DNA from: Escherichia coli | Lineage (GTDB): Bacteria > Pseudomonadota > Gammaproteobacteria > Enterobacterales > Enterobacteriaceae | Length of the DNA stretch: 64,000 nucleotides | Strand: one strand, 5' to 3' | NCBI RefSeq assembly: GCF_003334765.1 | Contig: NZ_QOWT01000011.1 | In this document: piece by piece, positions 16,511-22,385 of the stretch | Position numbering within the stretch: the first letter of the stretch is position 1 | Layout of the letters: every line of letters begins with the position of its first letter | Position numbers and translations under genes: made by a program | Notes under the pieces: generated by a model | Seen by the model: only the letters and a program-made list of their open reading frames with translations | The model's database searches: none | What the model was told of the DNA's origin: nothing

Positions 16511-17860
16511 TTATTTTTCCTGAAGACCGAGTTTTTTCTCCAGATAGTGGATGTTAGTGCCACCATGCTGGAAGTTCTCGTCATTCATGATGCGGATCTG
16601 CAGATCAACGTTGGTTTTGATACCGTCGATGATCAGCTCCTGCAGCGCATTCTTCATGCGGGCAATCGCCACGTCACGGTTTTCACCGTAGCAAATCAGC
16701 TTACCGATCATTGAGTCATAGTACGGCGGTACGGTGTAGCCCGCGTAGATATGAGACTCCCAACGTACGCCAAAACCGCCAGGTGCGTGGAAACGGGTGA
16801 TTTTGCCCGGACTTGGCAGGAAGGTGTTCGGATCTTCGGCGTTGATACGACATTCCACCGCATGGCCGCGAACGTGAACTTCTTCTTGCTTGATCGACAG
16901 CGGTTGACCGGCAGCGATACGCAGCTGTTCTTTGATCAGGTCAACGCCGGTGATCATTTCTGTAACCGGGTGTTCTACCTGAATACGGGTGTTCATTTCG
17001 ATGAAATAGAACTCGCCGTTTTCGAACAGGAACTCGAAAGTACCTGCACCGCGATAGCCGATATCAACACACGCTTTAGCGCAACGTTCGCCGATGTAGC
17101 GACGCAGTTCCGGGGTAATGCCCGGTGCTGGCGCTTCTTCGACCACTTTCTGGTGGCGGCGTTGCATGGAGCAGTCACGTTCCGCCAGATAGATAGCGTT
17201 GCCCTGACCGTCAGCCAGTACCTGAATCTCGACGTGGCGAGGATTTTCCAGGTATTTCTCCATGTAAACCATATCGTTGCTGAAAGCAGCTTTCGCTTCC
17301 GCACGGGTCATGGAGATGGATTGTGCCAGTTCAGCGTCGCCGCGCACTACGCGCATACCGCGACCGCCGCCGCCGCCGGAGGCTTTGATAATCACCGGAT
17401 AACCAATGCGTTTAGCAATGGCACGGTTTTTATCCATATCGTCGCCCAGCGGGCCGTCAGAACCCGGTACGCAAGGGACGCCCGCTTTTTTCATCGCCGC
17501 GATTGCGGATACTTTGTCGCCCATCAGGCGAATGGTTTCTGCTTTCGGGCCAATGAAGATAAAGCCGGAGCGTTCAACCTGCTCGGCAAAGTTGGCGTTC
17601 TCGGAGAGGAAGCCGTAACCCGGATGGATTGCTACTGCGCCGGTGATTTCAGCGGCGCTGATGATTGCCGGGATGTTCAGATAACTTTTTACTGACGGAG
17701 CAGGGCCAATACAGACCGTTTCATCTGCCAGTAATACGTGTTTTAGATCGCGATCCGCGCTGGAGTGCACAGCGACAGTCTTGATGCCCAGTTCTTTACA
17801 GGCACGAAGAATACGCAATGCAATCTCGCCGCGGTTGGCAATAACAATTTTATCCAGCAT
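16511..17860 (-). CDS. accC: Biotin carboxylase subunit of acetyl-CoA carboxylase
   Basis: ATP-grasp ORF; start placed at [31 protein letters not shown] (449 aa). Confidence 0.96.
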
Positions 17861-17870
17861 GTTCGCCTCG

Positions 17871-18341
17871 TTACTCGATGACGACCAGCGGCTCGTCAAA
17901 TTCTACCGGTTGTCCACTTTCGACCAGAATTGCTTTCACGGTACCGGATTTGTCCGCTTCGATCTGGTTCATCATTTTCATGGCTTCAACGATGCACAGG
18001 GTATCGCCCACGTTGACTTTCTGACCCACTTCGATGAACGCTTTTGCGTCCGGGCTTGGGGTGCGGTAGAAAGTACCAACCATCGGGGAACGTACGATGT
18101 GACCACTGATTTCCGCTGCTGCTGGCGCTTCCATGGAAGGAACGGTCGCCGGAGCGGCTGCGTTAGATTGAGCTGGCTGCTGCATCATTGGTGCAGCGTA
18201 AGCTTGTTGCATCACAGGGAAACTTGCGGCAGGAGCTGCACGGCTAATGCGTACTGACTCTTCGCCTTCAGAAATTTCCAGTTCGGAGATGCCTGATTCT
18301 TCAACCAGCTCGATCAGTTTTTTAATCTTACGAATATCCAT
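17871..18341 (-). CDS. accB: Biotin carboxyl carrier protein (BCCP)
   Basis: 156 aa ORF with biotinylation motif [10 protein letters not shown] and Pro/Ala-rich linker. Confidence 0.96.
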
Positions 18342-19318
18342 GAGTGGGTTCCGTACTCTTTGTTTAGTGTGATTGTGACAGGCGTTTCACCGCCGTCTGT
18401 AAAGCGTATGCCCCGACAGCTGTATGCATAGCGATAAATTCCAGCAGGCCGGGACGCCGGTCTATTTTGCCCCAGAGTGTCAATGTTAGACTTGACGGAC
18501 ATTGTGCAGCGATCTGCTGCTATCCTCCGGCAAAAAACAAAATATACCTTCGTTGCGCCAATGTCACCTTTTCCGCAGCGCAAAAACTGCGTCAGGGAGG
18601 ACGAGGTCGCACATTATAACGATTTCGTAGCAATTGGCAGCTAAATACTGGTCTTATCAGGGAAGATAATCAACAGCTAACATGTAAATAACCTTCAACA
18701 CCGTGTAATTTGCAACAAGCCGCACAATTCACGAAATTAGCGCCATCATCGACGGAACTTCTTATAACGTAAGGTGAAAAGCTGAAAAGCCAGCCCTGCG
18801 AAGATGAGGGGCTGCAATGAGATAATCTTCACAGACCACAAATAATGTAGGGATGCCAGGATCGCGACAAGATAGACGACATTACGCAGCGGTTGCTGGG
18901 GATTACCCAATTTTCACTGCATCGTCTGGATAGATGTGAATGCTAAAGCACGCAAAATTAACCGATTGACAATGCTCAGCATTAAATAGGTTCGAGTGAT
19001 TAATTTGTAGTCAAACAAAATCAGATTATTCACCCCATGGTACCAGAAATAAGTAAGGGGCTAAGCGTAGCGTCGCCCAGGCAAAGCACCATAAACCTAA
19101 CAGGCGACGGAGGCGTATCAATAATAGCTGTTTAGTGGAGTATCAATGCGCATCAATTTGTGGTCAGTCGAAATCATGACTTTCCAGTTTGGATGATGTT
19201 GTATAACTTCCTGACCAAGGTGTTCGACGAAAGCTGTCCGGCTAACCGCTTTTCCCGTTAACCGATTGAATAATGATTTCAAAATGAGTTCCCTCTCTTA
19301 TTATTCCCTGCTAAATGG

Positions 19319-20293
19319 TTAGTTAACCTTCACCAGCGTGCGACCCTGGATCTGGTTATTAATGATGGCCTCGGCAAAGTTCGGTGCCTCTGACAGAGAT
19401 ATCTCTTTTGCCGCCTGGGTATAGAATGATTCCGGTAAATCGGCGACCAGTCGCTGCCAGGCTTGTGCGCGGCGTTCTGGTGGCGTCATTACTGAATCCA
19501 CCCCTTGCAAACGGACATTACGCAGAATAAATGGCATGACCGTGGTTGGCAGAGTAAAACCACCCGCCAGACCACAGGCCGCCACGCAGCCGCCGTAATT
19601 CATTTGCGCCAGCACTTTTGCCAGCACTTTGTCGCCAACGGTGTCAATTGCCCCAGCCCAGACTTGTTTTTCCAGAGGACGGGATTCGGCAAACTCATCA
19701 CGAGGGAGAACACGGCTAGCACCTAAACTTTTCAGATATTCATGGGTACTTTCGCGACCGGAAACGGCAACGACCTGATAACCCAACTTATGCAGCAGCG
19801 CCACGGCGGTACTGCCGACGCCACCACTGGCACCCGTCACGACAATCTCCCCGTCCTGCGGGCGAACACCGGCATCTTCCAGCGCCATCACACACAGCAT
19901 GGCGGTAAAACCGGCAGTACCGATAATCATTGCTTTACGCGCGTCCAGCCCTTGCGGCATGGCAACCAGCCAGTCACCTTTCACTCGCGCCTGCTCCGCC
20001 AGCCCACCCCAGTGGTTTTCACCAACGCCCCAGCCAGTGAGTAACACCTCCTGACCGGCATGAAAACGCGGATCTTCGCTGGTGCGTACAGTTCCGGCAA
20101 AATCGATCCCAGGAATCATCGGAAAATTACGGATGATTTTTCCCTTACCGGTAATCGCCAGCGCATCTTTATAGTTCAGGCTCGACCAGTGAACATCGAC
20201 CGTGACATCGCCCTCCGGCAGGCGACTTTCGTCCAGAGTCTGTACTGATGCGAGAGTTTTGCCGTCCTGCTGTTCTAAAAGTAACGCCTGCAT
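19319..20293 (-). CDS. acuI: NADPH-dependent acrylyl-CoA reductase / quinone oxidoreductase-like (MDR family)
   Basis: 324 aa ORF with Rossmann motif VTGASGGVGS; medium-chain dehydrogenase family. Confidence 0.88.
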   Translation of the reverse strand: MQALLLEQQDGKTLASVQTLDESRLPEGDVTVDVHWSSLNYKDALAITGKGKIIRNFPMIPGIDFAGTVRTSEDPRFHAGQEVLLTGWGVGENHWGGLAEQARVKGDWLVAMPQGLDARKAMIIGTAGFTAMLCVMALEDAGVRPQDGEIVVTGASGGVGSTAVALLHKLGYQVVAVSGRESTHEYLKSLGASRVLPRDEFAESRPLEKQVWAGAIDTVGDKVLAKVLAQMNYGGCVAACGLAGGFTLPTTVMPFILRNVRLQGVDSVMTPPERRAQAWQRLVADLPESFYTQAAKEISLSEAPNFAEAIINNQIQGRTLVKVN

Positions 20294-20444
20294 AAGTGGT
20301 CCTCATGTGCATGATGGATTGGAAAATAATTTCTGAAGACTATACTCGCTAATGGAAAAGCAAAGCCGATGAAGCGCAATAAATTGCGAGATAAATCTGA
20401 TTTGCTAGTATGCCCGCTTCCTCACTATCGGAGTTAACACAAGG

Positions 20445-22385
20445 ATGAGATTAACGACGAAATTTTCGGCCTTTGTTACGCTGCTCACCGGGTTAACAAT
20501 TTTTGTGACTTTGCTGGGCTGTTCGCTAAGTTTCTACAACGCCATTCAGTATAAGTTTAGTCATCGCGTTCAGGCGGTGGCGACGGCGATTGATACCCAC
20601 CTTGTGTCGAATGACTTCAGCGTATTAAGGCCACAAATTACCGAATTAATGATGTCGGCAGATATCGTTCGTGTAGACCTGCTCCATGGTGATAAACAGG
20701 TTTATACCCTGGCCAGAAATGGTAGTTATCGTCCAGTTGGCTCCAGCGATCTGTTTCGCGAACTGAGCGTTCCGTTGATAAAGCATCCGGGGATGTCGTT
20801 GCGTCTGGTTTATCAGGATCCGATGGGCAACTATTTCCATTCGTTGATGACCACCGCGCCGCTCACGGGGGCGATTGGCTTTATCATTGTTATGCTCTTC
20901 CTGGCGGTACGCTGGTTACAACGGCAACTTGCCGGGCAAGAATTGCTGGAAACCCGGGCTACTCGTATCTTAAACGGTGAGCGTGGCTCTAATGTGTTGG
21001 GAACCATCTATGAATGGCCGCCCAGAACCAGCAGTGCGCTGGATACGCTGCTTCGTGAAATTCAGAACGCACGCGAACAACACAGCCGTCTTGATACGCT
21101 GATCCGCTCTTATGCCGCCCAGGACGTGAAAACCGGCCTCAATAACCGACTCTTTTTCGATAATCAGTTAGCAACGTTACTGGAAGATCAGGAGAAAGTA
21201 GGTACCCACGGGATCGTGATGATGATTCGTCTGCCGGATTTCAATATGTTGAGCGATACCTGGGGGCACAGCCAGGTTGAAGAACAGTTCTTCACTCTGA
21301 CGAATCTGCTGTCGACATTTATGATGCGCTACCCTGGCGCACTGCTGGCGCGTTACCACCGCAGTGATTTTGCTGCGCTGTTACCGCACCGGACGTTAAA
21401 AGAGGCAGAGAGCATCGCCGGTCAGTTAATCAAAGCCGTTGATACCTTGCCGAACAATAAAATGCTCGATCGCGACGATATGATCCACATTGGTATCTGC
21501 GCCTGGCGTAGTGGTCAGGATACCGAGCAGGTAATGGAACATGCAGAGTCTGCCACGCGTAATGCGGGATTGCAGGGCGGCAATAGCTGGGCTATTTACG
21601 ATGACTCGTTGCCTGAAAAAGGACGCGGTAATGTTCGCTGGCGTACGCTTATCGAGCAAATGCTCAGTCGCGGCGGCCCGCGCCTTTATCAAAAACCGGC
21701 GGTTACTCGCGAAGGTCAGGTTCATCATCGCGAACTCATGTGCCGCATCTTCGATGGTAATGAAGAGGTTAGCTCGGCGGAGTATATGCCGATGGTCTTG
21801 CAGTTTGGCTTATCGGAAGAGTATGACCGTCTGCAAATCAGCCGTCTTATTCCACTATTGCGTTACTGGCCAGAGGAAAATCTGGCGATTCAGGTTACCG
21901 TTGAGTCGCTGATTCGCCCGCGTTTTCAGCGTTGGCTGCGCGATACGTTAATGCAATGTGAAAAATCACAACGAAAACGCATAATTATTGAACTTGCAGA
22001 GGCCGATGTAGGTCAACATATCAGTCGTTTACAACCTGTTATTCGTTTAGTGAATGCTTTAGGGGTACGGGTAGCCGTCAACCAGGCTGGTTTGACGCTG
22101 GTAAGTACCAGTTGGATCAAAGAACTTAATGTTGAGTTACTCAAGCTCCATCCGGGGCTGGTCAGAAACATTGAGAAGCGAACGGAGAACCAGCTGCTGG
22201 TTCAAAGCCTGGTGGAAGCCTGCTCCGGGACCAGCACCCAGGTTTACGCCACCGGCGTGCGTTCGCGAAGCGAGTGGCAGACCCTGATTCAGCGCGGTGT
22301 TACAGGCGGGCAAGGGGATTTTTTCGCGTCCTCACAGCCACTTGATACTAACGTGAAAAAATATTCACAAAGATACTCGGTTTAA
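20445..22385 (+). CDS. csrD: GGDEF-EAL domain RNase E specificity factor (degenerate GGDEF/EAL)
   Basis: 646 aa ORF with N-terminal TM segments followed by GGDEF-like and EAL-like domains. Confidence 0.9.
   Translation: MRLTTKFSAFVTLLTGLTIFVTLLGCSLSFYNAIQYKFSHRVQAVATAIDTHLVSNDFSVLRPQITELMMSADIVRVDLLHGDKQVYTLARNGSYRPVGSSDLFRELSVPLIKHPGMSLRLVYQDPMGNYFHSLMTTAPLTGAIGFIIVMLFLAVRWLQRQLAGQELLETRATRILNGERGSNVLGTIYEWPPRTSSALDTLLREIQNAREQHSRLDTLIRSYAAQDVKTGLNNRLFFDNQLATLLEDQEKVGTHGIVMMIRLPDFNMLSDTWGHSQVEEQFFTLTNLLSTFMMRYPGALLARYHRSDFAALLPHRTLKEAESIAGQLIKAVDTLPNNKMLDRDDMIHIGICAWRSGQDTEQVMEHAESATRNAGLQGGNSWAIYDDSLPEKGRGNVRWRTLIEQMLSRGGPRLYQKPAVTREGQVHHRELMCRIFDGNEEVSSAEYMPMVLQFGLSEEYDRLQISRLIPLLRYWPEENLAIQVTVESLIRPRFQRWLRDTLMQCEKSQRKRIIIELAEADVGQHISRLQPVIRLVNALGVRVAVNQAGLTLVSTSWIKELNVELLKLHPGLVRNIEKRTENQLLVQSLVEACSGTSTQVYATGVRSRSEWQTLIQRGVTGGQGDFFASSQPLDTNVKKYSQRYSV

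Follow-up and report, generated by a model that had tools for sequence, protein, structure and literature searches.

The 977 nucleotides between acuI and accB in the window, by which we mean the whole 64,000-nt stretch of Escherichia coli DNA that was analyzed, are very probably best explained, taken as a whole, as a record of gene loss at an ancestral acuI-msrP-msrQ-aroQ-accB-accC locus. The distal ~650 nt are non-functional residue, while the proximal ~320 nt, consisting of the promoter block and the leader, are probably the sole functional part, driving accBC and probably also tuning it. The interval is a case of ordinary gene decay that was already known in the annotation, and what is new is the ancestry of the decayed parts. 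The observations behind this explanation are of homology, synteny, lesions, population frequencies and conservation profiles.

In the order of events that we infer, a core of ~310 nt would have been lost from aroQ in an ancestor common to Escherichia, Citrobacter and Salmonella, leaving the promoter, the 5' UTR, both ends of the gene (its start region and its last 48 nt) and the spacer with the accB ribosome-binding site to form an accBC leader of ~265 nt. In the lineage to E. coli and E. albertii, a second copy of msrPQ would have arisen at the hiuH-zinT locus, the site at which HprRS controls its expression as hiuH-msrPQ, and a cassette of ~900 nt with a distant DUF1444-like gene would have been inserted directly after acuI. 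The original msrPQ, now redundant, would then have been destroyed by deletion. The short haplotype would have arisen by one deletion, which started at nt 144 of the DUF1444-like gene and ended near nt 198 of msrQ, and yrdE' would have undergone neutral drift after the fusion.

An interval with two annotated pseudogenes

The earlier note on this DNA had described a gene-free interval of 977 bp between accB and acuI. Its boundaries, taken from the sequence and the ORF list, are exact (18342-19318, between the accB ATG at 18341-18339 on the minus strand and the acuI stop codon at 19319-19321), and no intact gene is present. The term "gene-free" holds for intact genes and fails otherwise, since RefSeq already annotates yrdF (b4697) and yrdE (b4646) between yhdH/acuI and accB in K-12 MG1655. 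Positions 3404638-3405031 in K-12 correspond to 18746-19139 in the window (yrdE), and positions 3404495-3404637 to 19140-19282 (yrdF). Both are regarded as pseudogenes in the literature, and in some strains PGAP calls a pseudogene of the YedZ/cytochrome b family in the interval. The ~600 bp distal to the leader that had been called unexplained hence contain ~540 nt of already annotated yrdF and yrdE, and of the options that had been put forward for this part, that of a decayed gene remnant was borne out for these ~540 nt. The value of our results for annotation is small, the interval being already labelled yrdF'/yrdE' in the reference genome; what they add is a likely cause for the long leader and the identity of the decayed genes, which are aroQ, a DUF1444-like gene of sporadic occurrence and the msrPQ pair of the ancestral site.

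The features of the interval and its neighbors are listed in Table 1. On the minus strand, the gene order is acuI, accB and accC, and the AcuI protein of the window is 89.6% identical to that of Citrobacter. The GC content of the interval is 45.1%, as compared to 50.5% for the whole window. Sequences matching the interval were identified in all 5426 complete E. coli genomes, and at least 80% of its length was covered, with 90-100% identity, in 5421 of these; within the species, the interval is fixed. It contains ORFs of at least 30 aa, all of which are short, and the four that were tested (89, 54, 39 and 31 aa) are remnants or out-of-frame readings, with no intact gene among them. A search of the interval for repeats, IS ends and tandem arrays yielded short chance matches only.

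Table 1. Features of the acuI-accB interval and its two neighbors, in window coordinates.
Feature	Position	Strand	Basis
acuI (yhdH), upstream neighbor	19319..20293	-	324-aa ORF, annotated, intact
Spacer, 36 nt, with Shine-Dalgarno-like GAGAGGGAA before the yrdF TTG start	19283..19318	-	sequence reading
yrdF', first ~48 codons of a 276-aa distant DUF1444-like gene	19140..19282	-	K-12 b4697, tblastn
yrdE', msrQ codons ~67-199 at the ancestral locus	18746..19139	-	K-12 b4646, NCBIfam, tblastn
Spacer between msrQ stop and promoter	18661..18745	-	91-92% identity among Escherichia species, vs. 77-82% for yrdE
accBC promoter block	18607..18660	-	promoter scan, cross-genus conservation
FadR-like site CTGATAAGACCAGTA	18646-18660	-	resemblance to FadR consensus, literature on FadR and accBC
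-35 element, CTGCCA	18635-18640	-	promoter scan
-10 element, TATAAT	18613-18618	-	promoter scan
5' part of leader, former aroQ 5' UTR	18503..18606	-	77-sequence alignment
Vestigial aroQ (type II 3-dehydroquinase), 139 nt	18364..18502	-	tblastn, DNA alignment
aroQ start codon and ~5-7 codons	18482-18502	-	ATG at 18502-18500
Last 48 nt of aroQ and stop	18364-18412	-	DNA identity, six genera
aroQ-accB spacer, 22 nt, with accB ribosome-binding site	18342..18363	-	conservation
accB, downstream neighbor	17871..18341	-	156-aa ORF, annotated, intact

The accBC promoter and the aroQ stump in its leader

The accBC promoter, which we take to be located about 300 bp upstream of accB, had been invoked together with a long leader to account for part of the interval, and this agrees with the sequence. 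The best match to the sigma-70 consensus (10/12) is CTGCCA-16-TATAAT at 18640-18613, with hexamers at a spacing within the 16-18 nt range of such promoters and kept in relatives. It is located in a block of ~55 nt that is essentially invariant in Escherichia, Citrobacter, Salmonella, Klebsiella, Enterobacter and Atlantibacter and 98-100% identical within Escherichia. The tentative assignment of CTGATAAGACCAGTA to FadR is based on its likeness to the FadR consensus and on a published statement that accBC is promoted by FadR.

The sequence between this promoter and accB, which the earlier note had treated as a plain leader, contains the stump of an aroQ gene. The order aroQ-accB-accC occurs also in other gamma-proteobacteria, such as Pseudomonas, Haemophilus and Yersinia. 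In about 50 species of the Enterobacteriaceae, an intact aroQ gene for a 150-aa protein is located exactly at the site of the stump and ends 21-25 nt before the accB ATG, while ~139 nt are found in its place in Escherichia, Citrobacter, Salmonella and the Klebsiella oxytoca group. A tblastn search aligned residues 136-150 of AroQ to the stump with 80% identity (E 3e-4), and the 3' end of the stump is identical at 44-46 of 48-49 nt to nt 405-453 of aroQ from six genera. The middle ~70 nt of the stump gave no reliable alignment to aroQ and are not conserved between genera, and the aroQ core of ~310 nt is absent in E. coli. What is left of the catalytic domain of ~150 aa that defines the AroQ family (PF01220) is the start with ~5-7 codons and the last 16 codons, which are in different frames.

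Compared to the aroQ-accB-accC arrangement of many Enterobacteriaceae, E. coli has the same promoter block, the same hairpin in the 5' UTR, the same last 48 nt of aroQ and the same spacer, but it lacks the catalytic core, has a mutated Shine-Dalgarno sequence and carries the 139-nt stump within the accBC leader. The former Shine-Dalgarno sequence of aroQ, GGAG, which is located in the loop of the hairpin, has been changed to GAAG or GCAG in all genera without aroQ. The 22-nt spacer is invariant across these genera, nearly so in those that carry aroQ, and 100% identical within Escherichia. The vestigial start codon has been lost in C. sedlakii, K. grimontii and one of two C. amalonaticus assemblies (L090). 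The ORF at 18314-18583 (minus strand), which had been noted to overlap accB and to be unconvincing as a gene, does exist; it encodes 89 aa, starts 5' of the vestigial aroQ ATG (18502), passes through it in the same frame and runs on out of frame into accB. A conserved upstream ORF starting from the vestigial ATG was also considered and was rejected, as it has 63 codons in Escherichia and stops after 5 in Citrobacter sp. MGH106 and Salmonella.

With its length set by the -10 element, from which we also infer the transcription start site, the leader would be ~265 nt long and composed of the aroQ 5' UTR (~105 nt), the stump (139 nt) and the spacer (22 nt). The loss of the aroQ core from an aroQ-accBC operon is probably why the accBC promoter is located ~300 nt 5' of accB: it is probably the promoter of the former operon, of which the first gene has been gutted. 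The old oddity of a distant accBC promoter would be accounted for by this loss.

The alignment of the 5' UTR contained 77 sequences, one per species, with a mean column identity of 85%. In this alignment, the hairpin at 18507-18522, which has a stem of 4 bp and a loop that encloses the former aroQ Shine-Dalgarno sequence, was paired in 96.4% of the cells and included one covarying pair (GC in 22, UA in 21, CG in 19 and AU in 6 sequences). The observed score was reached in none of 500 shuffles, and the slid controls paired at 55% or less. A variable hairpin at 18574-18591 folds in every sequence, with differing stems (mean z -1.35). The global structure of a 285-nt leader did not go beyond that of shuffled sequences (z = -1.32).

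The identity between E. coli and other Escherichia species is 95-100% for the aroQ stump, as compared to 92-96% for the third codon positions of accB, 84-90% for those of accC and 77-82% for yrdE. The conservation of the stump within the genus hints at a function and does not fit well with a simple neutral residue. We tentatively raise the possibility, which we still consider doubtful, that the stump and the former 5' UTR owe their retention to a role as an RNA element that acts in cis to tune accBC. Such a role, which like any regulatory role of the leader we read from the sequence, would explain why the covarying hairpin has been retained in genera without aroQ, why no variation is seen in the 70 nt that precede accB, and why the stump is conserved within Escherichia (96-99%) above the third positions of accC (84-90%). 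The leader may be a target of the autoregulation by AccB or of pairing with OmrA, and the pattern of conservation of the stump is compatible with a role specific to the lineage.

It has also been suggested that the interval could hold extended regulatory DNA. That the whole kilobase serves accBC in this manner, as distal operators or an UP region, would be in line with the conservation above neutral of the promoter block and the ~85 nt upstream of it. It would also be in line with the published regulation of accBC, which depends on growth rate, includes autoregulation by AccB and is promoted by FadR. We nevertheless regard it as very unlikely. Conservation ends sharply at the msrQ stop codon (18745/18746), with 91% identity on the accB side (18661-18745) and 78% on the acuI side (18746-19038), and other genera have an intact msrQ coding sequence immediately 5' of the same promoter. 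Furthermore, wild-type growth and cell shape have been reported for a strain with a kan cassette at 18705/18706, a short way 3' of yrdE (yrdE-kan), which cuts the distal part off from the promoter, and the insertion serves as a neutral marker.

yrdF, a DUF1444-like gene and two haplotypes

The 178 nt next to acuI had no source in msrP, the spacers, the working msrPQ locus, plasmids or phages, and a word-indexed protein search retrieved E. coli ORFs only. Their origin was solved by a full HMMER scan, which identified a 277-aa relative of yrdF with 62% identity over residues 3-49. In some E. coli strains (among them O26:H11 11368 and 2013C-3250), the gap between acuI and accB is 1731 nt long and contains an intact gene for a protein of 276 aa, WP_000202360.1, which PGAP names "DUF1444 domain-containing". 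Residues 1-48 of the O26:H11 protein match the window with 95.8% identity (tblastn, E 2.6e-28), and the spacer at 19283-19318 is co-linear with the spacer 5' of the intact gene in O26:H11. The yrdF' of K-12 (b4697) is the same feature as in the window, to which we add that it descends from the N-terminal part of a DUF1444-like gene.

At this site, 667 of the 5426 E. coli genomes (12%) carry the gene in intact form, as counted from matches of the long form over at least 80% of the query. Its protein matches Pfam PF07285 weakly yet over the full length (i-E 0.0063, model positions 15-254 of 264) and scores 23 bits against NCBIfam NF010189, for which the cutoff is 221. A search of the intact protein with PADLOC and PHROGs gave no match. 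Members of the DUF1444 family match over ~250 residues, of which the window copy retains 48 codons only. Homologs are very rare and were found in E. coli, E. albertii and a few metagenome contigs, in one of which plasmid-like genes adjoin the homolog. This uncharacterized gene thus represents a presence/absence polymorphism within E. coli.

Two haplotypes are seen at the locus. In the short one, represented by K-12 and the window, yrdF' is fused to yrdE'. In the long one, the intact DUF1444-like gene is followed by the ribosome-binding site and the first ~113 nt of msrP, and this msrP fragment is joined to msrQ at about nt 270-300; E. albertii has a junction of the long type. The short form retains nt ~199-300 of msrQ, which are absent from the long form, and the long form retains sequence that is absent from the short form. 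Since each form holds sequence missing from the other, neither can be derived from the other by one deletion, and judging by these junctions both must descend from an arrangement acuI-DUF1444-msrP-msrQ-accB.

The 54-aa ORF at 19118-19282, in which yrdF extends into yrdE sequence, could in principle be a real small protein: it has a TTG start preceded by the Shine-Dalgarno-like GAGAGGGAA, and it is annotated by PGAP in some genomes as the hypothetical protein WP_000838293.1. This is highly improbable given that residues 1-48 are the N-terminus of the 276-aa protein and the rest is out-of-frame msrQ. Its homologs are ORF calls of 54-92 aa, named as E. coli or from metagenomes, with a frame that drifts at the 3' end; four longer proteins match solely the first ~48 residues, which are those derived from DUF1444, and no NCBIfam family was matched.

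This ORF was also considered as a relative of the tail of MsrQ ("KSLFNRL" as compared to "RSLFNRL" in the working protein). The candidate was rejected, as the similarity at the DNA level was not above that of shuffled sequences and the ORF is the N-terminus of the DUF1444-like gene. A marginal match remained at the protein level (E 0.05-0.07), and the upstream boundary gave no support. More speculatively, the tail of 16 residues in the working MsrQ of E. coli may come from the 5' end of the DUF1444-like gene; if so, msrPQ would have passed through a tandem duplication on its way to control by HprRS, and the tail would be a trace of this intermediate.

A small RNA had been another option for the distal part, either independent or derived from the 3' UTR of acuI, and the interval is indeed long, more AT-rich than its surroundings and present in every E. 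coli genome. An Rfam 15 scan of 17800-20500 with E-values up to 10, a check that the earlier note had proposed, identified no family at the gathering score. The only two matches below the threshold were Ysr190 (RF02764) and Betaproteobacteria-1, the latter inside acuI. The weak match to Ysr190 (Yersinia sRNA 190) is full-length, covers 18539-18638 on the minus strand and has a score of 25.3 bits (E 0.53), below the gathering score of 66, which does not make it a member of the family. It is best over the -35 and -10 elements, so that it lies on the promoter and the 5' leader rather than on the distal part, and its most likely source is the conservation of the aroQ/accBC promoter and 5' UTR, not an independent small RNA. 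No intrinsic terminators were predicted on either strand, as compared to 1.4 expected by chance. The distal part evolves at a neutral rate, with 77-82% identity between Escherichia species as compared to 91-100% for the flanks, and in the 12% of strains with the long form ~100 nt of it are replaced by 856 nt of other sequence. With the Rfam threshold not reached, no terminator and its sole weak match on the promoter and leader, the small RNA was not supported by these searches, and we consider it extremely unlikely.

yrdE and the ancestral msrPQ locus

yrdE is the C-terminal two-thirds of the original msrQ gene, left at its ancestral site, as judged from homology and gene order. It matches the NCBIfam model for MsrQ, NF003831, at profile positions 72-193 of 212 (E 9.5e-26) with 90.6 bits, below the cutoff of 130, and 1437 MsrQ homologs were found. 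In tblastn searches, residues 69-98 of MsrQ aligned to 19133-19044 and residues 101-199 to 19036-18740 in another frame. The lesions in yrdE are a +1 frameshift near 19040, a CGA to TGA stop at 18914-18916 and an early terminal stop at 18746-18748. The first ~66 codons are missing, and neither a full-length match above the cutoff (NF003831; Pfam PF01794, Ferric_reduct) nor an uninterrupted frame of ~199-211 codons, as in MsrQ, was found. Two histidines have been replaced by arginine (WATLHL to WATLRL and LHNFVYL to LRNVVYL), while a third (IHYLW) has been retained; both replaced residues are invariant among the intact MsrQ sequences compared. The conserved histidines of MsrQ are presumably the haem ligands. 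A tblastn search of the interval gave no similarity to MsrP, so that an adjacent msrP is also lacking.

In relation to known MsrPQ systems, yrdE aligns to residues ~67-199 of MsrQ and is located where other genera have msrQ, but it is a remnant without msrP and without the first third of msrQ, with a frameshift, an internal stop and two His to Arg replacements. From its sequence, it cannot encode a working haem-binding subunit. The identity to msrQ of Escherichia sp. E1V33 is 81, 84 and 74% at the first, second and third codon positions, as compared to 96, 99.7 and 69% for the intact acuI. The third positions have diverged as in the neighboring gene, while the first and second positions are unconstrained, which is the signature of a drifting pseudogene; by this measure, yrdE has been drifting neutrally since about the time of the species split.

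We searched one genome per species for the locus, which returned 80 loci, three of them short with a downstream side that runs off. In Citrobacter enshiensis and Atlantibacter hermannii, the gene order is mreB-csrD-acuI-msrP-msrQ-(aroQ)-accB-accC-yhdT-panF. The genes msrP-msrQ were located directly 5' of aroQ/accB in 79 of the 80 loci, the exception being the hiuH locus of E. albertii, and acuI, which was sought within the fetched flank, was detected in 66 of the 79. The region of yrdE is co-linear with msrQ-accB of Citrobacter at 78% identity. Intact msrPQ genes linked to acuI were identified in Salmonella, Escherichia whittamii, Escherichia sp. E1V33 and the divergent "E. coli" E69. In the comparison to E1V33, window positions 21000 to 19319 correspond to 1216 to 2898 up to the acuI stop, and positions 19135 to 16500 correspond to 4203 to 6837 from nt 203 of msrQ onward, with 94% identity and one gap. 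E. coli lacks 1304 nt, which extend from the spacer between acuI and msrP through the whole of msrP to nt 202 of msrQ.

No intact copy of msrPQ was found at the old site among the complete E. coli genomes. Matches to the lost 1304 nt in these genomes are 80-90% identical and located at the hiuH locus or on seven plasmids. The working msrPQ genes of E. coli are arranged as hprSR/hiuH-msrP-msrQ-zinT, as they are in E. albertii. The msrQ gene linked to hiuH shares 86-87% identity with the syntenic copies of Escherichia, as compared to 74% with that of Citrobacter; the corresponding values for msrP are 84-86% and 78%. In a neighbor-joining tree of the 3' region of msrQ, based on ~300 nt and without bootstrap support, all Escherichia sequences form one clade, whether remnants, intact copies at the syntenic site or copies linked to hiuH, with Citrobacter, Salmonella, Klebsiella, Enterobacter and Kluyvera outside of it. 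The simplest reading of these distances, on which it is based, is that msrPQ was duplicated to the hiuH site within Escherichia and that the original was subsequently lost.

The least credible of the alternatives is that yrdE is an extra paralog that was inserted at the site and decayed there. A working msrQ is present elsewhere in E. coli, and yrdE is only 75-77% identical to it. Against this stand the presence of msrPQ at exactly the same site in nearly all of the loci scanned, including those in which acuI was detected, the intact msrPQ genes that sister Escherichia lineages hold there between flanks of 94% identity, and the retention of the msrP start region 5' of the msrQ fragment in the long haplotype; the derived location belongs to the working copy. 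The older label "yedZ paralog" implies such an extra copy. The yrdE' of K-12 (b4646) is the same feature as in the window, and our addition is that it represents the original msrQ and not an extra paralog.

A protein of 196 aa (P0002) with 74% identity to the remnant, which differs from it at one position at the C-terminus, was considered as an intact ortholog of yrdE and rejected. The metagenome contigs that encode it (L010 and L011) are chimeric, with 100-nt chunks that match Enterobacter, then E. coli at 99-100% and then Raoultella.

Published work has placed msrPQ under the control of HprRS in E. coli, where the genes are next to hiuH, and under the control of Cpx in Salmonella, rather than of an HprRS homolog. 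This difference fits with the location of the genes, which is derived in E. coli and the ancestral, acuI-linked one in Salmonella and in most relatives. The derived location provides a simple genomic reason for the control by HprRS in the one species and by Cpx in the other.

A presence/absence polymorphism in the acuI-accB interval

The distant DUF1444-like gene between acuI and accB is a presence/absence polymorphism within E. coli. It is intact, encoding a protein of 276 amino acids, in 667 of 5426 complete E. coli genomes, and only its first 48 codons are left in the remaining ones. Very few relatives were identified beyond E. coli and E. albertii, one of which has plasmid-like genes (KfrA, Aca2) as neighbors.

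The short haplotype, represented by K-12, and the long haplotype of O26:H11 each retain sequence that is missing from the other (window 19038-19139); deriving both from one shared acuI-DUF1444-msrP-msrQ ancestor therefore requires two deletions that occurred independently. The long-type junction was also found in E. albertii (L097). In strain 14EC017 (NZ_CP024134.1, 507183-508936), the acuI-accB interval carries an IS1A insertion, which is further evidence that its distal part tolerates disruption.

Coordinates of the DUF1444-like gene and of the MsrQ tail
Feature	Location	Remark
DUF1444-like gene, remnant	window 19140-19282	
DUF1444-like gene, intact	L094 2365-3195	E. coli O26:H11 11368
Tail of the working msrQ	L008 4580-4636	hiuH-linked locus; compared with window 19259-19282

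The MsrQ tail and other copies of msrPQ

The MsrQ protein of E. coli has 211 amino acids, as compared to 199 in the ancestral form, and is distinguished by a 16-residue C-terminal tail that begins exactly where the homology to the old locus ends. The tail sequence RSLFNRLRKQV is similar to the N-terminus of the DUF1444-like protein, TSLFNRLTGKAV (tblastn E-values of 0.05-0.07 in a small search space), but the similarity between the two was not significant at the DNA level. This likeness may have been left behind when a rearrangement relocated msrPQ.

An msrP-msrQ pair was also identified on seven E. coli plasmids (e.g., NZ_CP172135.1, 32246-33429). With 86.7% identity, the plasmid pair is slightly closer to the syntenic copy in Escherichia sp. 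E1V33 than is the chromosomal hiuH-linked copy (84.5%). Intact msrPQ genes were observed at the ancestral site in a genome labeled Escherichia coli strain E69 (CP089930.1), the acuI gene of which is only about 90% identical to that of the window; this is probably another Escherichia species carrying an E. coli label.

The aroQ stump and aroQ decay in other genera

The middle part of the aroQ stump (window 18413-18481), which cannot be aligned reliably to aroQ, is 96-99% identical among Escherichia species, and is more conserved within the genus than the third codon positions of accB and accC; between genera, it is not conserved. Other genera also show a partial, independent decay of the aroQ gene that precedes accB (L028, L029, L056, L038, L075). 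In Phytobacter and Kosakonia (L028, L029, L056), AroQ residues 1-31 are fused to residues 99-150, P. massiliensis, which has a gap of 505 nt, retains no AroQ match, and an AroQ fragment with 53% identity remains in L038.

Chimeric metagenome contigs

The 196-residue protein P0002, first taken as an intact orthologue of the msrQ remnant, is encoded by two independent low-coverage metagenome contigs (L010 and L011), both of which are mosaic: consecutive 100-nt segments match various Enterobacter species, then E. coli (99-100%) and then Raoultella. The apparent points of joining are conserved k-mers in msrQ and the promoter, and the two mosaics serve as a warning about short metagenome contigs.
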